Assembly (NCBI GenBank): GCA_964467915.1
Contig: CAYXSW010000001.1
Location: 70,597-134,596 of the forward strand
Direction of reading: 5' to 3'
DNA: 64,000 bases
From: an uncultured Marinoscillum sp.
GTDB lineage: Bacteria; Bacteroidota; Bacteroidia; Cytophagales; MED-G16
The notes below the pieces were generated by a model. The model was not told the origin of the DNA. It worked only from the letters and a program-made list of their open reading frames with translations, and did not search any database. The position numbers and the translations under genes are program-made. Of the stretch, positions 5,648-39,963 are shown in pieces (within the stretch, counting starts at the first letter, position 1; each line of letters opens with the position of its first letter).

Positions 5648-6621
5648 AACCTTTTATATTTTTTTTTACACTTGTTCTTGTGTCTTGTAACACGAACAGA
5701 TGCCCAAAAACAAATAACCAAGAGTCCTTAAAGCACATTCAAATCAACTATTTAATAGATAAAATAGGTGGTTTAGAATCTAGAAACGATTTTTTAATTT
5801 ATTTAGAAAAAAACAAAGAGGTTTTATATCCATTTTATGAAATAAATGACACAATAAACATAGAATATAAAATAAATAACATTTATTCATTACTAAATAA
5901 TATATTTTTTGATAGTCTCTATATAGATGTTTATGATGAGTTTGGAGCTAAAAAAAACTTCTTCTCTAGTTTAGATTATTCAATAGGACTTTATAATTCA
6001 ACTAATAAAAATCAACTTAATCCTAAGTTGACAGTTTTATTATCTGGTTTTTATAACGACGTTGTTGTAGATAAAGAAAATATAATTTTAGGAGCAGAAT
6101 ACTTTCTTAAAAAAGACAATAAGTATAAGCCAAGAGACCTACCTTCTTATATTTTGGATAGATATACCCCAGAACACATAAATTCAACTATACTTTCAAC
6201 GTATCTATCCCAATTTAATATTGTAGATGAATCAGATAAAACTATGCTAAATGAAATGATATCTTTTGGCAAATTGTATTATGTTGTTGAAAAACTATTA
6301 GTCTGTGAAAATCAAAATATTATATTAGGCTACTCTAAAGAACAGTTTGAAATGATTGAAGAGAATGAGGCTTTTATTTATAGTTTTTTCCTTCAGAACG
6401 AGTTGTTTTTTCAAGAGGGAAATTTAATTAAACAAAAGTATTTATCTGAGAGACCAAGCACCTTTGAAATATCACAGTCAGTTCCTGGAAGAGTTGGTCG
6501 GTGGATGGGGTGGAAAATAGTATCTTCTTTTATGGAAAACAACAAATACACCTTAGAAGACCTTTTAAATGAATATGATTATAAAAAAATTTTTTATAAT
6601 TCTAATTATAAACCCTTGTAA
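5644..6621 (+). CDS. gldB: Gliding-motility lipoprotein GldB
   Basis: Lipoprotein signal (FTLVLVSC). The C-terminal region ...SERPSTFEISQSVPGRVGRWMGWKIVSSFMENN...YKPL closely resembles the GldB C-terminus as I recall it (SPGRVG.WIGWQIV.SYMENN). GTG start overlapping the rng stop. Confidence 0.7.
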   Translation: MKPFIFFFTLVLVSCNTNRCPKTNNQESLKHIQINYLIDKIGGLESRNDFLIYLEKNKEVLYPFYEINDTINIEYKINNIYSLLNNIFFDSLYIDVYDEFGAKKNFFSSLDYSIGLYNSTNKNQLNPKLTVLLSGFYNDVVVDKENIILGAEYFLKKDNKYKPRDLPSYILDRYTPEHINSTILSTYLSQFNIVDESDKTMLNEMISFGKLYYVVEKLLVCENQNIILGYSKEQFEMIEENEAFIYSFFLQNELFFQEGNLIKQKYLSERPSTFEISQSVPGRVGRWMGWKIVSSFMENNKYTLEDLLNEYDYKKIFYNSNYKPL

Positions 6622-6622
6622 G

Positions 6623-7273
6623 GTGAAAAAAAAAGAGAAGGTAAAATTTGTTATTAAAACCTTAGAAAGTCTCTACCCAAAAACAACTATTCCACTAAAC
6701 CATAAAGACCCATACACACTTTTGGTTGCGGTCTTACTTTCTGCGCAAAGCACTGATGCTGGTGTAAATAAAATAACACCAAAACTATTTAAAAAAGCAG
6801 ACACCCCCTACGAAATGGTTAAGCTTTCAATTTCTGAAATTAGAGAAATCATTAAGCCTGTAGGTTTGTCACCAATGAAAGCTAAAGGAATTTATGGTCT
6901 GTCTAAGATTTTAATAAATGAACACAAAGGCAAGGTTCCTTGTGATTTAGAATTCTTAGAATCTCTTCCTGCCGTTGGGCACAAAACAGCTAGCGTGGTC
7001 ATGTCTCAAGCTTTTGGTGAGCCTATGTTTCCTGTAGACACTCACATTCACAGGTTAATGTACAGGTGGGGCCTCTCATCAGGAAAAAATGTAGTAAAAA
7101 CAGAGCACGACGCAAAAAGACTATTTCCTAAAAAACTATGGAACAAACTACACCTACAAATAATTTATTACGGACGAGAAAGATCTCCCGCAAGAGGGTG
7201 GAACATTAAAAACGATCCTATTTCTTTAAAAATTGGAAGAAAGGCAGTAATCACTAAATTAGCTCGAAATTAA
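6623..7273 (+). CDS. nth: Endonuclease III family DNA glycosylase/AP lyase lacking the Fe-S cluster cysteines
   Basis: HhH-GPD core: LLVAVLLSAQSTD, LPAVGHKTASVV (catalytic Lys) and VDTHIHR (Asp). I place the start at the in-frame GTG at 6623, right after the gldB stop, rather than at the track's 6569, which would overlap gldB by 53 nt. The C-terminus contains no Cys. Confidence 0.85.
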   Translation: MKKKEKVKFVIKTLESLYPKTTIPLNHKDPYTLLVAVLLSAQSTDAGVNKITPKLFKKADTPYEMVKLSISEIREIIKPVGLSPMKAKGIYGLSKILINEHKGKVPCDLEFLESLPAVGHKTASVVMSQAFGEPMFPVDTHIHRLMYRWGLSSGKNVVKTEHDAKRLFPKKLWNKLHLQIIYYGRERSPARGWNIKNDPISLKIGRKAVITKLARN

Positions 7274-32712: not shown

Positions 32713-33727
32713 ATTTTTTAACTTTAAAAAGTATATCAGAGCCAATTTTTTCAAATGGTTTTTTTCTTATACCTGGGCCCTTGATTCCTTTAACAAATTT
32801 AATTTTAGATTTAAATATTCTTGCCTCATCCCAAAGACCTTTTTCTATAATTTTATTTAAAGTAATTCCGCCCCCTTCAACTAATAAACTATTAATTCCT
32901 CTTTTGTATAAATCTTCATATATATCCTCTAATTTAAATGGGTGTATTTTTATAAAGTGTTTATGTCCAGTTGTTTTGTTTGATGTTTTATTATAAATCA
33001 AAGAAATTGATTTATCATTCAATAGATTAGTGGTCTCCAATAATTTGTTGTTTGGATCAATCACAACCCTTACCGGGTTTCTTCCTTTCCATAGCCTTAC
33101 ATTTAGAAGCGGATTGTCTTTATTTGCAGTGTTAACTCCAATTAGAATCCCCGTCTCCTCAGACCTCCATTTGTGTACTAAAGCTCTAGATAATTTGTTA
33201 GATATCCATTTTGAACTACCATCTTCTCTTGCAATAAAGCCATCAGATGTTTCAGCCCATTTTAAAACGACATAAGGCCTGTTTTTATAATGGTTGATAA
33301 AAAACCTTTTATTTAGGGTTTTCCCTTCTTCTTCTAATATCCCAGAAACAACTTTTATGTTGTTTTTTTTTAATTTTTTTATTCCCTTACCATTAACATC
33401 AGGGTTAGGATCAATATTTGAAATAATAACTTCTTTTGGTTTATATTCAATCAATTTATCAGAGCATGGAGGAGTTTTACCAAAATGACTGCAAGGTTCT
33501 AAGCTTACATATACCGAAGCTCCTTCAATTTCTTTTTTGTTATGAACGTCATTTATTGCATTTATTTCTGCATGATTCCCTCCAAATTTTTTATGGTAAC
33601 CTTCTCCAATTATCTTATTTTCTTTAACAATAACACACCCAACCATTGGATTTGGAAAGACATAGCCCAACCCCTTTTTTGCAAGATAAAAGGATCTTCT
33701 AATGAATTTCTTGTGTTTATTTTCCAT
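32705..33727 (-). CDS. ribD: Bifunctional riboflavin biosynthesis deaminase/reductase RibD
   Basis: CMP/dCMP deaminase zinc motif HAEINA...LEPCSHFGKTPPC followed by a RibD C-terminal reductase domain. Confidence 0.9.
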   Translation of the reverse strand: MENKHKKFIRRSFYLAKKGLGYVFPNPMVGCVIVKENKIIGEGYHKKFGGNHAEINAINDVHNKKEIEGASVYVSLEPCSHFGKTPPCSDKLIEYKPKEVIISNIDPNPDVNGKGIKKLKKNNIKVVSGILEEEGKTLNKRFFINHYKNRPYVVLKWAETSDGFIAREDGSSKWISNKLSRALVHKWRSEETGILIGVNTANKDNPLLNVRLWKGRNPVRVVIDPNNKLLETTNLLNDKSISLIYNKTSNKTTGHKHFIKIHPFKLEDIYEDLYKRGINSLLVEGGGITLNKIIEKGLWDEARIFKSKIKFVKGIKGPGIRKKPFEKIGSDILFKVKKYA

Positions 33728-33737
33728 ATTTATATCT

Positions 33738-34574
33738 ATGCCTGATATAGAATCAAATTCAATTTATAATGAATTACTTAACAAAGTAAATTATTATTCT
33801 GGTAATGATCTAAAAAATATTTCTTTAAAATATCTATATCAAAAATATAATTTATCTAATTCTGACCTATTACTTAACAAAAAGATTAAATGGAACAAAA
33901 AAGTCAAAATATCATTTTATGAAGACATTGAAAAAATAAATGGAGGAATACCTGTTCAGTATATAGCAAAATCTCAGTTTTTTTATGATCAGAATTTTTA
34001 TATTGATGAAAATGTTTTAATACCTCGTCCTGAAACTGAAGAATTGGTAAGTCATATTATAAGTTTAGAAAAAAGTAGTAAGAAAAAAAATATTTTAGAT
34101 ATAGGCACAGGTTCTGGTTGTATTGCTATATCGTTATATAAACATTTAGAAGCTGACGTTTTTGGTATTGACTCATCTAAAGAAGCAATTAGGGTAGCAA
34201 ATAAAAACAATAAAATAATTCATAAAAAAGTGAACTTTATCCACTCAAGCATTGAAGAGTATATTCCAGAAGTAAACTTTGACGTTATTGTTAGCAATCC
34301 CCCTTATATTTCTTTTGATGACAAAAAAAAGGTTGATGAAAATGTTTTAAAACATGAACCTCATGAAGCTCTTTTTGTAGGTAAGGATCCTTTATATTTT
34401 TATAGAAAGATATTAGAGTTCTGTAAAAATAATTTAAACAAAAAAGCAAAGATGTATTTTGAGATTAATGATAAATATGTAAATGAATTGGGAACTCTTT
34501 TTTTAGAGTATGATCATAAATTCATGAATGATATTTACGGAAAGAAAAGGTTTTTATTTGTTGGTGTAGCTTAA
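33738..34574 (+). CDS. prmC: Release-factor glutamine N5-methyltransferase PrmC/HemK
   Basis: LIPRPETE, SAM-binding DIGTGSGCIA and catalytic NPPY. Start placed at ATG 33738 (the track start at 33702 overlaps ribD). Confidence 0.85.
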   Translation: MPDIESNSIYNELLNKVNYYSGNDLKNISLKYLYQKYNLSNSDLLLNKKIKWNKKVKISFYEDIEKINGGIPVQYIAKSQFFYDQNFYIDENVLIPRPETEELVSHIISLEKSSKKKNILDIGTGSGCIAISLYKHLEADVFGIDSSKEAIRVANKNNKIIHKKVNFIHSSIEEYIPEVNFDVIVSNPPYISFDDKKKVDENVLKHEPHEALFVGKDPLYFYRKILEFCKNNLNKKAKMYFEINDKYVNELGTLFLEYDHKFMNDIYGKKRFLFVGVA

Positions 34575-34823
34575 GGTTCCTTTACCTAGTTTAAAAATAA
34601 AAACAGATCTGTATTTATTCATATATTCTTTAATTTCTTCATTAAGTAATAACATAATATCATTATAGTCTCCGTAAATTATTGAACTTAAACCATTAGT
34701 TTCAATTAGAAGGTTTTTTTTATTAGAAATGTCCTTTAAAAACATTTTAACAATTTTTTTATAGCCTTTCTCTTTGTTTTTTTGGAGCAAAGGATACACA
34801 CTTATCTCTAAAGTTACTTTCAT
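34554..34823 (-). CDS. MTH1187/YkoF-family (thiamine-binding fold, DUF77) small protein
   Basis: 89 aa. The N-terminal MKVTLEISVYPL... and ...T.GLSSIIYGDYNDIM... pattern is characteristic of the UPF0045/MTH1187 family. It starts 1 nt after the TonB-receptor stop, so it lies in the riboswitch-controlled unit. Confidence 0.65.
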   Translation of the reverse strand: MKVTLEISVYPLLQKNKEKGYKKIVKMFLKDISNKKNLLIETNGLSSIIYGDYNDIMLLLNEEIKEYMNKYRSVFIFKLGKGTLSYTNK

Positions 34824-34824
34824 G

Positions 34825-37233
34825 TTAGATTTTAATATTAATTGTAAACATATAATTTCTTCCAGCCTGTGGGTAAAAATAATTTTCTCTTATCTCATAA
34901 TTTATCCCCCCATAATAGCCAAAGGTATAACCGTTACTAGAATACATTTTATTAAAAATATTATTTATTGAAAACTTTATGTATAAATTTTTGAAAATAT
35001 TATTATTAAAACTCGCACTTAGTTCAAGATCATTTACTAAAAACGAATCTATTAGTCTTTGATTATTAGATGTGTTGTCCAAAAACTGTTTTCCTACATA
35101 TTTAGAATTAAACGTTAAAATAAATGGTTTTTTAAACTGCCAAATCATTGAATTGTTAAATATAATGTTAGGTGAAAAAGAGATGTCAGTTTTTTTATAT
35201 TTATTAACTATGGTATTAAATTCATCGAAATCACTTCCATAATCATAAATGAATTCATTAAAATTAAACACATAATTTTTTGATAAGGTCAAAGATGAAT
35301 TAATGTTTATCTTCTGTTTGTTGACAGTGTTAGATAATTCTAACCCATACCTTCTGCTTTTTTTCACATTTGTCTTGATGTTAGCGCCAACGTCATTAAT
35401 CTCTCCTGTAGTGATAAGTTGATTATTATATTCCATCCAGAAAAAATTAATGTTTACCTGTCCTCTTTTATAATTAAAGTTGTTCCCTAATTCTAAGTCA
35501 TATAGTGTCTCATGTTTTGGAGGTGTTTTGGAATCAATAAAATCACTTCTTGTTGGCTCTCTATTTGCAATTGACAATGAAGCATACACATTTATCTTTT
35601 CATTTATATCATTTGTAATTCCAGCTTTTGGATTAAAAAACCAATTTTTAGAATCAATATTGATTTCTGTTCTGTCATTGTCTGTTCCATTACTTTGGTG
35701 TGAGTAACCCCTTATTTGTAATTCAGCAAACAGCTCTGTTTTATTTGAGATATTTACATTATACTTTGTGTAAACATTACCATCTTTTTTTGTTGATCCT
35801 GAAAAATAATATGGGCTTTGAAAAAACATATTTACTGAGTTTGATGAAATTATTTCTCCAAAGTGATCTCCGTCATATTTATTTATAGCTCCCCCTATAT
35901 TAAAAGAACTATTATTAAACTTTCTTAAAAAAGAATAAGTTACTCCATAAAAATGATTTTTAAGCCATCTTCTTCTTACCAGGTTTGTGATTTTATTTTC
36001 TTGGTTTTCATAATAATTTTTTAAATTGTCACCTTCCCTAAATTGTTCGTAATAACCTCTTCCAAAAGTATAATGAAAAGCTAAACTTAAATTTGTTTCT
36101 TTAGAAAAAGAATGATTCATGTGTGCTTGGTAGTGGTCTTGTTGATAGTTATCAGTCTCATTTTTATACGTGTAATAATTAAAAGTTCTTCCTGCACCTA
36201 ATAAATTTTCGGCTTGTGTTTCACTATATCCATTATTGTTAATTACCTGTTCCATGCCATCTATATCATTTATTAACCTTGACTCTGGCGTCCCCCACCA
36301 AGATTGATATGTTTTTTCTTTTCCTGAAAAGTTAATAAAGTCTATTGAGGTATTTTTTGAATAATAACTTGCTGAAGCATAGTAAGATTTTAGATTTGAA
36401 AATGCTCTATCAACATAACCATCAGATGTAATTTTTGAGAGTCTTAAATTAAAGTTCAATTTATTATTAATAAGCCCAGAATTAACTTCCATGGAATTTT
36501 TTATAGTGTTGAATGATCCGACAGAAGACAAGTAGTTTATTCTAAATTTTTCTGATAAATTTCCAGTCTTAATACTGACCGTTCCCCCGAAAGCTCCGCC
36601 TCCATTAGTTGATGAGCCAACTCCTCTTTGAACCTGTATACTATTAGAAGAAGAGGCAAGGTCAGGTGTGTTTACCCAGAACACACCATGTGATTCTGAA
36701 TCATTATAAGGAATTCCGTTTATAGTAATGTTTATTCTTGTGGCATCACTACCTCTAATCCTGATTCCTGTATATCCAACACCATTTCCAGCATCAGAAG
36801 TTGAGTAGGCAGAGGGTGTTGATTGAAGGATAAATGGAATGTCTTTAGCTATATTATTTTCTTCTATAAATTTTCTTGAAATATTTGTGAAGGCAAAAGG
36901 ACTCTTTTCTTTTACCCTTGTTGAGGTAACTTTAATCTCATCACTTAATAAGATACCGTCTTCGAGATTTACCTCATAATATTTGTTTTTGCTTGGGGTT
37001 ATTTGAATGTTTTTTGTTATGTAACCAACATGCGATATAGATATGTTAAAGTTTTCTGATTTTTTATTAATATAAAAATCACCCCTAGAATTAGTATAAA
37101 AAACCTCATTAGTAGAGGGAATAAATATATTTGCTCCAGGTATAATACTCCCTTCAGTATCTTTAACAACAATTTTTATAGATTCTTGAGAATACCCAGT
37201 AAAACTTAACCAAAAAAATAAAAGAATCCTCAT
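34825..37233 (-). CDS. TonB-dependent outer-membrane receptor (CarboxypepD_reg-like N-domain + plug + barrel)
   Basis: 802 aa with a signal peptide, plug motifs (DIPFILQSTPS, IRIRGSDATRINITINGIPYNDSE, VQRGVGSSTNGGGAFGG) and a C-terminal aromatic-ended barrel. No SusD partner. Confidence 0.9.
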   Translation of the reverse strand: MRILLFFWLSFTGYSQESIKIVVKDTEGSIIPGANIFIPSTNEVFYTNSRGDFYINKKSENFNISISHVGYITKNIQITPSKNKYYEVNLEDGILLSDEIKVTSTRVKEKSPFAFTNISRKFIEENNIAKDIPFILQSTPSAYSTSDAGNGVGYTGIRIRGSDATRINITINGIPYNDSESHGVFWVNTPDLASSSNSIQVQRGVGSSTNGGGAFGGTVSIKTGNLSEKFRINYLSSVGSFNTIKNSMEVNSGLINNKLNFNLRLSKITSDGYVDRAFSNLKSYYASASYYSKNTSIDFINFSGKEKTYQSWWGTPESRLINDIDGMEQVINNNGYSETQAENLLGAGRTFNYYTYKNETDNYQQDHYQAHMNHSFSKETNLSLAFHYTFGRGYYEQFREGDNLKNYYENQENKITNLVRRRWLKNHFYGVTYSFLRKFNNSSFNIGGAINKYDGDHFGEIISSNSVNMFFQSPYYFSGSTKKDGNVYTKYNVNISNKTELFAELQIRGYSHQSNGTDNDRTEINIDSKNWFFNPKAGITNDINEKINVYASLSIANREPTRSDFIDSKTPPKHETLYDLELGNNFNYKRGQVNINFFWMEYNNQLITTGEINDVGANIKTNVKKSRRYGLELSNTVNKQKININSSLTLSKNYVFNFNEFIYDYGSDFDEFNTIVNKYKKTDISFSPNIIFNNSMIWQFKKPFILTFNSKYVGKQFLDNTSNNQRLIDSFLVNDLELSASFNNNIFKNLYIKFSINNIFNKMYSSNGYTFGYYGGINYEIRENYFYPQAGRNYMFTINIKI

Positions 37234-37261
37234 GGTGAAAACATTTAAATGTACAGGACCT

Positions 37262-37365
37262 TAAAAAAGAGGAATGAAAATAACTTTCTTTTTTCTACGC
37301 CAGAATTACCTGGGTCAGTTTTAAGAGTATAATCTCAGCCCTTATATAAGGCACCCCTATGACAA
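37262..37365 (-). promoter_or_regulatory. TPP (THI-box) riboswitch, aptamer core about 37358->37295 plus putative expression platform
   Basis: The minus-strand RNA reads AGGGGUGCCUUAUAUAAGGGCUGAGAUUAUACUCUUAAAACUGACCCAGGUAAUUCUGGCGUAG. It has the conserved GGGGUGC, a P3 hairpin, CUGAGA, ACUGA, a CCAGG-UAAU-UCUGG P5 hairpin and GCGUAG, in the canonical order of the TPP aptamer (compare E. coli thiM). It lies in the only large intergenic gap, 5' of the TonB receptor. Confidence 0.85.
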
Positions 37366-37371
37366 AATTAA

Positions 37372-37875
37372 TTATTTATTATTAATAATATTTAAGGATG
37401 AATTTATTCTGTTAACAAGAGAACCTTCTATTATATAATAGTTTAGTTTTCTTTCTTTCATAGCTGACCTAAATTCTTCATAAATCATATCTCTATTATT
37501 CTGGTTCTCTCTCAATTTGTCATATTCCCAGGGGATATCAGGCTTACACAAAAGATAAATGTCAAACTCTTCTTTTTTTGATAGGCGTAGTATTTTTTTT
37601 TTAACTCTATTAAATTTTATTCTGCTCCAAAGCTCAATGTCTAATATGGACGTGTCAGCTATAATATAATCTCCCCCTCTTTTTATTGCGTCTTCTATTA
37701 TTATGTTTTGTTTTTTAGCTATTATTTCGAGATCAAGAATATTGTAAATTGATTTTTTTTCTAAGTATTCTCTTGCATACTCATCACAGAGTTCGCATTC
37801 TAATGTTTTGGAAAGAGATCGTGCCAAAGTACTTTTTCCTGAAGATTCTGGACCAACTACACTAATCTTGATCAT
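37372..37875 (-). CDS. P-loop ATPase resembling the ribosylnicotinamide-kinase domain of NadR (stand-alone)
   Basis: 167 aa. Walker A VVGPESSGKSTLA (NadR RNK-type GxESSGKS). Overlaps pnuC by 14 nt. Confidence 0.7.
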   Translation of the reverse strand: MIKISVVGPESSGKSTLARSLSKTLECELCDEYAREYLEKKSIYNILDLEIIAKKQNIIIEDAIKRGGDYIIADTSILDIELWSRIKFNRVKKKILRLSKKEEFDIYLLCKPDIPWEYDKLRENQNNRDMIYEEFRSAMKERKLNYYIIEGSLVNRINSSLNIINNK

Positions 37876-38422
37876 TTTCTAACTTTTTTTTCCATTCAAA
37901 ATACCCGGATACAGCTAAAATTAAAAAAACAAAATATTGACCACTAGTAATATAAAGTCCTTTGTATATAAATAGTGGTATATATATAATGTCTGCAATT
38001 ATCCAAAAAATCCAATTCTCTAATTTTCTTCTTGCCAACAGTAGCATAGCCGTTAAACTAAAAGCTGTGGTTATACTATCTAAAAAAACCACATCGCTAT
38101 CTGTCATTTTAAGAATAAAAAATAAGATGATAAAAAAACTGATAAATAAGATTACATAGTTTACGTTTTCTGATTTAGTGTTTTTTGAAATATGTTTTTT
38201 GATTTTAGTGTTTTTGGATGTCCATAATATCCAACCATACACACTCATCACAAAGTAATATAAATTTATACCCGCTTCAGCATATATTTTATTTTCATAT
38301 GTAATAAAAACATAAATTAAAACACTCACTATCCCAGTTGGGAAAACCAGGACGTTATTTTTTCGTGCAAACCATACACTTAATACGCCAGCCGTCGCTG
38401 CAATTATTTCAAGAGTTGACAT
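37862..38422 (-). CDS. pnuC: PnuC-family vitamin (nicotinamide riboside-type) transporter
   Basis: 186 aa, about 7 TM helices. SVWFARKNN, GWILW and NWIFWIIADIIYIPLF motifs of the Pnu family. Confidence 0.85.
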   Translation of the reverse strand: MSTLEIIAATAGVLSVWFARKNNVLVFPTGIVSVLIYVFITYENKIYAEAGINLYYFVMSVYGWILWTSKNTKIKKHISKNTKSENVNYVILFISFFIILFFILKMTDSDVVFLDSITTAFSLTAMLLLARRKLENWIFWIIADIIYIPLFIYKGLYITSGQYFVFLILAVSGYFEWKKKLENDQD

Positions 38423-38464
38423 TTAATAATATAAAAAGAATTTTTTAACTCAAGTATAATACAT

Positions 38465-38472
38465 TAGTTTTG
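38465..38472 (+). promoter_or_regulatory. Candidate -7 promoter box TAGTTTTG upstream of guaB
   Basis: Exact TAnnTTTG match 30 nt upstream of the guaB ATG, in the 80-nt divergent intergenic region. Confidence 0.3.
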
Positions 38473-38475
38473 CTT

Positions 38476-38502
38476 GGCAAATAGATAAATCTCTTATTTG
38501 CC
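38476..38502. promoter_or_regulatory. Perfect 8-bp inverted repeat GGCAAATA-N11-TATTTGCC abutting the guaB start codon (5'-UTR hairpin or operator)
   Basis: Read directly from the sequence: arms at 38476-38483 and 38495-38502 are exact reverse complements. The 3' arm ends at the base before ATG 38503. Confidence 0.35.
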
Positions 38503-39963
38503 ATGAAAAACAACACAAAATTTCAAAACGAGGCTTTAACATTTGATGATGTCCTCTTAGTACCTTCTTACTCAGAAATAATTCCAACAGACACGGACGT
38601 TAGGTCTTTATTGACAAGAAATATTAATATTAATATACCTATTGTGTCTGCGTCTATGGACACAGTTACAGAGTCAAAATTAGCAATTGCTATTGCCTTG
38701 AAAGGTGGCATGGGAATAGTACACAAGAACATGAGTATTAAAAAACAAGCCGAGGAAGTTAGGAGAGTTAAAAGATCTCAAAGCGGTATGATTAAAGACC
38801 CAATCACTATGGATAAAAACTCTAATGTTAAAGACGCATTATCTATAATGAAAAAACATCAGATTGGAGGAATTCCTATTATCAATGCTTCAAATGAGTT
38901 AATTGGAATAGTTACCAATAGAGACCTTAGATTTCAAAAAGACAGTTCGATCGAGATTTCTAAGATAATGACAAAGAAGTTGGTAACAGCTAAAGTTGGG
39001 ATTAGTCTTGATAGTGCTGAAAAAATTTTAAAAAAGCATAAAATTGAAAAACTACCTATAGTTGAAGGGAAAAAGTTTGTTGGCTTAATAACATATAAGG
39101 ATATTTTAAAAAACAAATCCATGCCTGATGCTTGTAAAGATTTGCTGGGTAGATTAAGAGTGGGAGCCGCAATTGGTGTTTCTGGGGATTGGGAGGAGAG
39201 GATAGATAAATTAATTGATTCTGGTGTAGATGTTTTATCTATAGACACTGCACACGCTCACTCAAAGTTAGTAATAGAGGTTCTAAAAACCATCAAATCA
39301 AATTACTCGATAGATGTTATCGTTGGTAATATTGCTACGGGAGAAGCGGCAAAAAAACTTGTTGACTCTGGTGCAGATGCGGTTAAGGTTGGTGTGGGCC
39401 CTGGAAGTATCTGCACTACTAGAATTATAGCTGGAGTAGGTATGCCTCAACTCTCGGCAATATATGATGTTTCTAAAAAAATTATAGGTTCGGGGGTGCC
39501 CGTAATAGCTGATGGGGGAATTAGATTTTCTGGAGATGTTGTGAAGGCTCTAGCAGCTGGAGCAAATTCAGTTATGATAGGTTCATTATTGGCTGGTACA
39601 GAAGAGACCCCTGGCGATATAATTTTATATGAGGGTAGAAAATACAAGGCTTATAGAGGAATGGGATCAGTAGAAGCCATGGAAGCAGGAACAAAAGACA
39701 GGTATTTTCAGCAAAATGAAAATGATCCAAAGAAATTAGTTCCTGAAGGAATTGTTGGCAGGGTTCCATATAAGGGGGATGTTTCGGAAGTCATTTATCA
39801 AATTACAGGTGGTTTAAGAGCAGGAATGGGTTATGTGGGGGCAAAAAATATATCAAAGCTTCAACAAGCTAATTTTGTAAGGATAACAAATGCGGGTTCA
39901 ATAGAGGGTCATCCTCACGACGTATTTATTACAAGAGAGTCTCCAAATTATTCAAAAAAATAA
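38503..39963 (+). CDS. guaB: IMP dehydrogenase
   Basis: TIM barrel with an inserted CBS pair. Catalytic loop [23 protein letters not shown] and YRGMGS motifs. Confidence 0.95.

Follow-up and report, generated by a model that had tools for sequence, protein, structure and literature searches.

A TPP riboswitch-linked string of Pnu transporter, NadR-like kinase, TonB receptor and YkoF-like genes as a candidate vitamin B1 acquisition module in Bacteroidota

Introduction

Thiamine (vitamin B1) uptake in gut Bacteroidetes involves the receptor OMthi (BT2390), the transporter PnuT (BT2396) and the thiamine pyrophosphokinase Tnr3/TPK (BT2397), together with thiamine pyrophosphate (TPP) riboswitches (Costliow & Degnan 2017, PMC5613172), and in the marine B1 literature the OMthi-type receptor is named "omr1" (PMC10881298, PMC12442306). 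The present study deals with a string of four genes and one TPP riboswitch on the minus strand of a 64 kb stretch of DNA from an uncultured Marinoscillum sp. (contig CAYXSW010000001.1), which is called the window below. The string encodes a Pnu-family transporter, a stand-alone NadR-like P-loop kinase, a TonB-dependent receptor and a small YkoF-like protein. An earlier prediction made from the letters of the window (the original prediction) had left two readings, two unrelated salvage modules that simply abut or one B1 route, and the comparative evidence assembled here favours the latter and disfavours the former. We consider it fairly probable that the string is a single thiamine acquisition module spanning both membranes.

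That TPP-controlled TonB receptors, PnuT and TPK as the partner of PnuT are established had been stated in the original prediction, and the literature bears this out (PMC5613172, PMC5749112). In PnuT of S. woodyi, the D166A substitution, which removes the Asp of the WxxW(x)3D motif, abolishes thiamine binding (PMC5749112). Moreover, "omr1 and pnuC" are already counted as Bacteroidetes B1 uptake genes in marine studies (PMC12442306).

Results

Organization of the locus and comparison with described systems

The four genes were placed by a six-frame open reading frame (ORF) list of the window, and their coordinates match the original prediction exactly. The elements are given below in the direction of transcription.

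38423..38502, minus strand: spacer of 80 nt that separates pnu from the divergently oriented guaB and presumably serves as promoter region for the pnu-kinase pair (ORF map)
37862..38422, minus strand: Pnu-family inner-membrane facilitator of PnuT type (predicted thiamine channel), 186 aa (PF04973)
37372..37875, minus strand: stand-alone NadR-RNK-like P-loop kinase (AAA_28), 167 aa, predicted to trap thiamine (PF13521)
37274..37368, minus strand: TPP riboswitch aptamer (RF00059; Rfam)
37234..37273, minus strand: short expression platform of 40 nt from the aptamer to the receptor start codon (sequence)
34825..37233, minus strand: TonB-dependent outer-membrane receptor, omr1/OMthi-like, 802 aa (CarbopepD_reg_2 and Plug)
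34554..34823, minus strand: single-domain MTH1187/YkoF-family protein (thiamine-binding fold), 89 aa (profile and fold)

As predicted, the kinase gene overlaps pnu by 14 nt and the 89-aa ORF starts 1 nt past the receptor stop; given this 1-nt gap, translation of the 89-aa gene is probably coupled to that of the receptor.

Like the OMthi-PnuT-TPK system, the window combines a TPP-controlled TonB receptor, a Pnu facilitator and a cytoplasmic kinase in one locus, and a locus of the same Pnu clade (L012) has exactly the order [TPP]-receptor-TPK-Pnu, where [TPP] stands for the riboswitch. In contrast to that system, the window has an AAA_28/NadR-RNK-like kinase in the place of TPK, its pnu-kinase pair lies upstream and not downstream of the riboswitch, and an extra YkoF-like gene is present 3' of the receptor. 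With the PnuC-NadR salvage of nicotinamide riboside (NR) in E. coli, Salmonella and Haemophilus (4QTN, 1LW7) the locus shares the pairing of a Pnu protein with an RNK-type kinase and metabolic trapping, and the window kinase has the fold and the catalytic motifs of NadR. However, this kinase of 167 aa stands alone with neither an NMNAT nor an HTH domain, Pnu is 23-26% identical to PnuC and has Asp instead of Asn in transmembrane helix 6 (TM6), and it has a TPP riboswitch, a YkoF-like protein and, among relatives, TPK as genomic partners in place of NAD genes.

The likeness to PnuT of S. woodyi (Jaehme et al. 2018, PMC5749112), compared by motif alone, lies in the WxxW(x)3D motif, and facilitated diffusion with trapping by phosphorylation would be the expected mechanism; published PnuT proteins are partnered by thiamine kinases or TPK and not by an enzyme of the RNK kind. 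The small protein resembles B. subtilis YkoF (ykoFEDC operon) and the MTH1187/TM0486 family in its ferredoxin-like fold, sequence motifs and TPP-riboswitch control, whereas it is a single domain of 89 aa and YkoF a 200-aa tandem repeat, it partners a Pnu/TonB route where YkoF partners an ECF/ABC-type transporter, and it departs from the family norm in being too divergent for the Pfam threshold alone. A literature search found no paper that links YkoF or a NadR-like kinase to PnuT, nor any account of a NadR-RNK-like kinase as the regular partner of this Pnu clade or of a single-domain YkoF-like protein as a third component in the cytoplasm; an earlier description is possible, as the foundational comparative papers lay outside that search. 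The riboswitch, the receptor and the channel are ordinary members of known families, and it is the trapping enzyme and the accessory binding protein that differ from the described system. Such a displaced trap would be a substitution within a well-understood uptake logic and not a new kind of system.

Conserved linkage across Bacteroidota

One genome per GTDB species was scanned with an alignment of Pnu homologues, which gave 80 species-level loci spanning Cytophagales, Chitinophagales, Balneolales, Bacteroidales and Flavobacteriales, with Pnu proteins 41-74% identical to that of the window. These loci were annotated by tblastn, ORF clustering, a hidden Markov model (HMM) of the YkoF-like family and a TPP covariance model. 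The linkage of the four proteins and the riboswitch is conserved across Bacteroidota. An AAA_28 kinase lies directly 3' of Pnu in 62 of the 80 loci, and 53 of these 62 also have at least one of two thiamine markers, a YkoF-like gene (in 34) and a TPP riboswitch (in 25); YkoF-like homologues are found just 5' of pnu in 35 of the 80. The order in Cytophagales and Chitinophagales is pnu-kin-[TPP]-receptor, as in the window, that in Bacteroidales and Lentimicrobiaceae is ykoF-pnu-kin, and that in Flavobacteriaceae is ykoF-pnu-kin-DUF4301-RF1-like-[TPP]-receptor. The position of ykoF 3' of the receptor is confined to the window's own lineage. Since the partners recur in varied orders and surroundings, functional coupling is indicated rather than chance juxtaposition or synteny alone. 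Conservation of the order had been suggested as a check on the original prediction, and the linkage is kept well beyond the syntenic close relatives, in several gene orders. The close metagenomic relatives L001-L008, in which the small protein is down to 57% identical, show the same five-element order, but they were discarded as linkage evidence because the whole region from guaB to ribD is syntenic in all of them.

Two of these loci are particularly informative. In L039, a Parvicella metagenome-assembled genome (MAG), a TPP element (6563-6655; 68.4 bits with Rfam), ykoF, pnu, the kinase gene, a second TPP element and the receptor gene all abut, and with the riboswitch directly 5' of ykoF-pnu-kin, the Pnu protein and the kinase belong there to a TPP-controlled operon. 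In L012, a Chitinophagaceae MAG, the TPP element (69.9 bits) is followed by a receptor only 28% identical to that of the window, a TPK (PF04263 and PF04265) and Pnu, as described for OMthi-pnuT-tnr3 of gut Bacteroidetes (PMC5613172), and in six Balneolaceae/Gracilimonas loci TPK is divergently adjacent to Pnu. The genomic context expected of PnuT is thus seen in this clade, in L012, in L039 and in six more TPK-adjacent loci; in the window itself, pnu precedes the riboswitch instead of following it. An AAA_28 kinase is absent from all seven TPK loci, and TPK from the flanks of all 62 kinase loci, a pattern that looks like non-orthologous displacement.

Some further genes recur at these loci. 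A DUF4301 protein (PF14134, about 430-517 aa) is encoded 3' of the kinase and before the TPP-receptor unit in nine loci (L065, L066, L069, L070, L079, L081, L084, L085 and L088), followed in five of them (L066, L070, L079, L085 and L088) by a small RF-1-domain protein, which is present without DUF4301 in L078 and L086.

The Pnu transporter

The Pnu protein matches PF04973 (NMN_transporter) over its full length (E=1.5e-57, model positions 1-175 of 175). It shares 23% identity with E. coli PnuC, 26% with N. mucosa PnuC (4QTN) and 47-55% with TPK- or TPP riboswitch-linked Pnu proteins. In a neighbour-joining tree, the window protein and the 80 Pnu proteins form one clade with the TPK-linked members nested inside, and E. 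coli and N. mucosa PnuC form the outgroup at the end of a long branch; the distance of Pnu from the NR transporters is as great as that between these two. A phylogeny had been proposed with the original prediction, and by tree and identities Pnu does not cluster with the characterised NR-specific PnuC.

The TM6 motif of the window protein, WIFWIIAD (W137-x-x-W140-x-x-x-D144), fits the pattern WxxW(x)3[D/N]. Among 81 aligned sequences, the two NR transporters included, 72 have this Asp, and the two transporters have Asn; as a single residue, this Asp is suggestive and no proof of Pnu specificity. On TIGR01528, the NCBIfam equivalog for the nicotinamide riboside transporter with a cut-off of 42 bits, the window protein scores 108 bits and E. 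coli PnuC 249 bits, and the TPK/TPP-linked Pnu proteins also pass, at 98-118 bits. As the latter and the window score alike, the "PnuC" label does not discriminate, and automated "PnuC" names in Bacteroidota are unreliable. No NAD-metabolism gene was recurrent among the neighbour clusters annotated in the 80 loci.

The P-loop kinase

The kinase matches PF13521 (AAA_28, E=4e-23) and, in part, the RNK portion of NadR models, scoring 71.6 bits on TIGR01526 against a cut-off of 341 over model positions 164-318 only. Its closest solved relatives by sequence are NadR RNK domains (9X6F, 2e-10; 1LW7, 3e-4). The AlphaFold2 model (pLDDT 95.5) has its best Foldseek matches in NadR (1LW7 and 8X7F, TMq 0.81-0.89), with thymidylate/deoxynucleoside kinases next. 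Walker A (GPESSGKST), Walker B (DT) and the lid (W..D.LR.....R) are conserved in 52 Pnu-linked homologues, and Walker A, Walker B, the lid arginines and EYxRxY are also common to E. coli NadR. Judged from sequence and model, the protein is very probably an active small-molecule kinase of RNK type. It is an AAA_28 protein without the catalytic and B1-binding domains of TPK (PF04263/PF04265).

Whether the kinase prefers NR or thiamine is not decided by its sequence alone. Genomic context and chemical analogy point to thiamine, as thiamine and NR are both cationic N-heterocycles with a primary alcohol, and we see about as much reason to expect as to doubt that the kinase phosphorylates thiamine. 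A shift of the channel from PnuC to PnuT may plausibly, we infer, have been matched by a shift of its partner from RNK to thiamine kinase. P-loop kinases transfer one phosphate, so the product would be thiamine monophosphate (TMP). As TMP is not bound by PnuT (PMC5749112), trapping in this form would work.

Sampling from the kinase side showed that the AAA_28 family is not exclusively thiamine-linked. Paralogues of 155-161 aa in L094 (6001-6468) and L096 (6001-6486), 35-39% identical to the window kinase, lie directly 3' of sprA, a gliding-motility gene, and have no Pnu in their vicinity; they appear to be a separate subfamily. The Pnu-kinase locus L097 has no TPP riboswitch and no YkoF-like gene; an APH-family gene (PF01636, 6512-7372) is convergent to the kinase gene there, beside a SIR2 gene. 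The E. coli thiamine kinase ThiK is of the same broad APH family, and the adjacency in L097 may be coincidental.

The TPP riboswitch and its placement

The predicted TPP aptamer was recovered with RF00059 at 57.7 bits (E=1.1e-8), a small margin over the gathering score of 54.3; the match spans model positions 1-105 of 105 and is the sole Rfam match in the window. The originally predicted 37358-37295 is the core of the Rfam match at 37368-37274. Its placement just past the kinase stop was correct, whereas the gap is 3-4 nt and not the 10-15 nt first given. From the aptamer end to the receptor ATG there are 40 nt (29-63 nt in relatives), and of 16 loci with the order pnu-kin-[TPP]-receptor, 12 have the kinase stop <=25 nt from the aptamer. 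In the Rfam alignment P1 of the window aptamer is weak, with 2 non-canonical pairs.

An own covariance model was built from eight TPP elements of related Bacteroidota loci, and it scores the window aptamer, which is among its training sequences, at 100.4 bits. A 30-element alignment fitted to this model has 93.7% of its cells paired and 8 pairs with compensatory changes; none of 500 shuffles matched it and slid controls were 33-62% paired. The model places the same TPP element 5' of every homologous receptor, and at the Rfam gathering threshold the element is also confirmed in nine relatives' loci and in the window. The leaders of the Flavobacteriaceae receptors L065, L078, L079 and L085 and the L009 element fall below the Rfam gathering score, and the own model, with L009 in its training set, recovers them at 41-96 bits.

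Receptor leaders in Flavobacteriaceae reach 165-185 nt by a large insertion, and five were found by the own model at 36-44 bits (L079:10130-10300, L085:10107-10285, L088:10049-10218, L078:8705-8870 and L086:13435-13619). The Rfam scan covered L078, L079 and L085 of these, all of which were under the TPP gathering score; surveys using RF00059 at its gathering threshold would overlook such long-insertion leaders. A strict regular expression for the TPP core missed the window aptamer and most others and was given up in favour of the covariance model.

The expression platform (37234-37273) is T-rich and contains a small palindrome, ACATTTAAATGT. A single-sequence fold of the leader was uninformative (z=-0.7), and a TAATTTTG box just 5' of the aptamer was rejected as a Bacteroidetes -7 box, as it is not conserved in L001, L009 and L010. 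The likeliest arrangement, as we infer, would be an operon-internal OFF switch near the receptor start codon, which would gate the receptor and ykoF and leave the pnu-kinase pair on; alternatively, the kinase gene would contain a promoter of the receptor.

In a Bacteroidota single-cell genome (L062), tandem TPP aptamers (1845-1937 and 1951-2047; 62.0 and 60.1 bits with Rfam) lie directly 3' of the kinase gene, and the contig stops before the next gene 3' of them. Rfam matches with no relation to the thiamine genes, in the flanks of two Flavobacteriaceae loci, were a DUF805 RNA motif in L070 (2079-2143, 63.7 bits) and a Flavo-1 RNA in L079 (3642-3720, 46.4 bits).

The TonB-dependent receptor

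The receptor has CarbopepD_reg_2 and Plug domains (Pfam), a signal peptide-like N-terminus as seen in its sequence and a weak full-length match to a TonB receptor model (NCBIfam). A TPP element is directly upstream in 20 of 20 loci with a strong receptor homologue.

Ten mostly Cytophagales loci encode a protein of about 205 aa 3' of the TPP-controlled receptor (L013:5819-6403, L017:10706-11314, L018:11456-12091, L033, L041, L046, L054, L056, L068 and L080). It has an invariant N-terminus, MSSHH...QEP, and an LLEW-P motif, and is without a GDxDS-like motif. Its likeness to TPK is weak (hhalign probability 56%, 2OMK with E of about 1, no Pfam match), and by sequence it may be a degenerate TPK-like thiamine-binding protein.

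The YkoF-like protein

Taken alone, the 89-aa protein does not reach the threshold of PF01910 (Thiamine_BP), with 12.6 bits against a cut-off of 24.9 (E=0.14). A word-indexed search gave 11 close homologues, whose profile matches MJ1052, a structure of the UPF0045/MTH1187 family (E=0.0017), and an exhaustive HMMER search with the family gave 272 cluster representatives. Of 99 aligned family members, 80 match PF01910 (E<=0.01) and 68 match PF07615 (YkoF); the profile of this wider 99-member family finds MJ1052 at E=6.7e-9 and B. subtilis YkoF at E=6.6e-8. The motifs S-x-Y-P and S-T/S-x-x-x-G are common to the family and to YkoF/MJ1052. The AlphaFold2 model (pLDDT 75.5) has a beta-alpha-beta-beta-alpha-beta ferredoxin-like fold, and its nine best PDB fold matches (Foldseek, E<=0.001, ranks 1-10) are chains of MJ1052, SP2199 and TM0486, with YBL001c and a B. 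cereus DUF77 protein as weaker ones. The original YkoF-like call was thus right as to the family, by profile and fold, whereas the single sequence stays below the Pfam threshold. The protein has no signal peptide and is cytoplasmic on that account.

Setting of the locus

The G+C content over the locus is 25-37%. A full Rfam scan of the window found no element in the 80-nt pnu/guaB spacer, and no intrinsic terminator was detected anywhere in 34400-38600. Matches in a sigma-70 promoter scan, which does not cover Bacteroidota promoters, were no commoner than in shuffled sequence. The 3' ends of the 89-aa gene and of a convergent gene for a prmC-like methyltransferase (plus strand, 33702-34574) overlap over 21 nt (34554-34574).

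As stated in the original prediction, the window holds no thiamine biosynthesis gene; tblastn found no thiC/D/E/F/G/H/L/M/S or TPK homologue in it. This absence had been called compatible with auxotrophy; a stretch of 64 kb says little on that point and, being all that was covered, is silent on thi genes in the rest of the genome. The organism had been taken for a flavobacterium, but the nearest named relatives are labelled Cytophagales / Flammeovirgaceae / Marinoscillum, not Flavobacteriaceae.

Discussion

The route that we propose, with its predicted substrates, regulation and transcripts, would begin at the outer membrane, across which the TonB receptor (omr1/OMthi type) would bring thiamine. 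Expression of the receptor and of the 89-aa gene would be lowered by the riboswitch when thiamine pyrophosphate suffices. The PnuT-type Pnu protein would let thiamine diffuse across the inner membrane and, as a facilitator cannot concentrate its substrate, trapping in the cytoplasm would be needed. The RNK-like P-loop kinase would serve as the trap in place of TPK, most likely yielding thiamine monophosphate, and the cytoplasmic YkoF-like protein may bind the incoming thiamine as a sink or a hand-over factor. Transcripts of the pnu-kinase pair would read into the aptamer if the switch is operon-internal, or else a receptor promoter would lie inside the kinase gene.

Some of the results weigh against this route. 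The kinase keeps nearly all NadR RNK motifs including EYxRxY, its best sequence and fold matches are NR kinases, and its sequence is compatible with NR. With a single phosphate transferred, ThiL would still be required to make TPP. The assignment of Pnu to PnuT rests on context and one motif, and MTH1187/YkoF-family proteins are not all shown to bind thiamine. The split between TPK and kinase follows lineage, with TPK in Balneolaceae/Gracilimonas and L012, and so represents few independent events. Within the fetched flanks, 9 of the 62 Pnu-kinase loci have no thiamine marker, and neither has the Pnu-kinase pair of L097/L098; further, no TPP riboswitch was detected in the Bacteroidales ykoF-pnu-kin loci with Rfam or with the own model.

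Several of these observations would be expected if two unrelated modules abut, with Pnu and the kinase serving NR/NAD salvage and the riboswitch, receptor and YkoF-like protein alone serving B1. The TIGR01528 "PnuC" score above cut-off, the match of the kinase to the RNK part of NadR models, NadR RNK domains as its best PDB sequence and fold matches with the RNK motifs conserved, the JGI name "nicotinamide riboside kinase" of its homologues and the Pnu-kinase pairs with no thiamine marker nearby all speak for this explanation. We nevertheless regard it as unlikely. The YkoF-like gene is directly 5' of pnu-kinase in 34 loci with varied surroundings, a TPP riboswitch directly precedes ykoF-pnu-kin in L039, and in many unrelated genomes no more than 25 nt separate the kinase from the riboswitch-receptor unit that follows it. 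TPK is a partner of this Pnu clade as well, Pnu is distant from the NR transporters and has the PnuT-type Asp, TIGR01528 does not discriminate, and no NAD-metabolism gene recurs among the annotated neighbour clusters. The original prediction had named the lack of a significant RF00059 match, or a firm grouping of Pnu with NR-specific PnuC along with unconserved adjacency, as grounds for giving up the single route; the RF00059 match is significant, Pnu stands apart from NR PnuC and the adjacency is conserved. That the genes stand in a row by chance in a compact genome is barely conceivable; guaB to ribD is syntenic in the closest relatives, which alone prove nothing, but the association persists in varied orders and flanks across several Bacteroidota orders.

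A different question is whether the compound imported and phosphorylated is intact thiamine or a related vitamer such as hydroxymethylpyrimidine (HMP), a degradation product or thiazole alcohol. B. subtilis YkoF is called thiamin/HMP-binding in the title of Devedjiev 2004, as cited in PMC5037267, the specificity of marine omr1 receptors has been described as unclear (PMC12442306), thiamine analogues are tolerated by PnuT (PMC5749112) and the kinase substrate is a prediction only. TPK takes intact thiamine as its substrate, and its pairing with this Pnu clade speaks against a vitamer. Use of HMP or thiazole requires ThiD/ThiE/ThiM, and these were not encountered in the window, nor at any of the 80 loci; a vitamer as the true cargo is quite improbable.

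With thiamine as the cargo, a broader claim goes beyond the single module: that the Pnu-adjacent AAA_28 kinases in most Bacteroidota are unrecognised thiamine kinases displacing TPK as the trap of PnuT, that the YkoF-like protein is a dedicated cytoplasmic thiamine acceptor, and that the "PnuC/NR kinase" genes are B1 genes. For this claim as a whole the case stands evenly poised. Throughout this clade of Bacteroidota, "PnuC" and "nicotinamide riboside kinase" are probably misnomers.

Conclusions

The locus shows in clean form how a riboswitch can directly adjoin the stop codon of the gene before it, and such a placement would gate the outer-membrane half only of an uptake route across two membranes. 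Most bacterioplankton of the sea are unable to synthesise vitamin B1, and B1 cycling is surveyed by means of marker genes. If the trio of Pnu, kinase and YkoF-like protein is a B1 route, a gene pair adjacent in 62 of the 80 sampled Bacteroidota species is being miscounted as NAD salvage, or not counted. Some Bacteroidota MAGs are reported to be without known B1 transport systems (PMC10881298), and the route might explain some of these. It would also mean a new family of thiamine-phosphorylating enzymes, which is directly testable with one purified protein. The thiamine-kinase claim, if true, would correct a widespread annotation.

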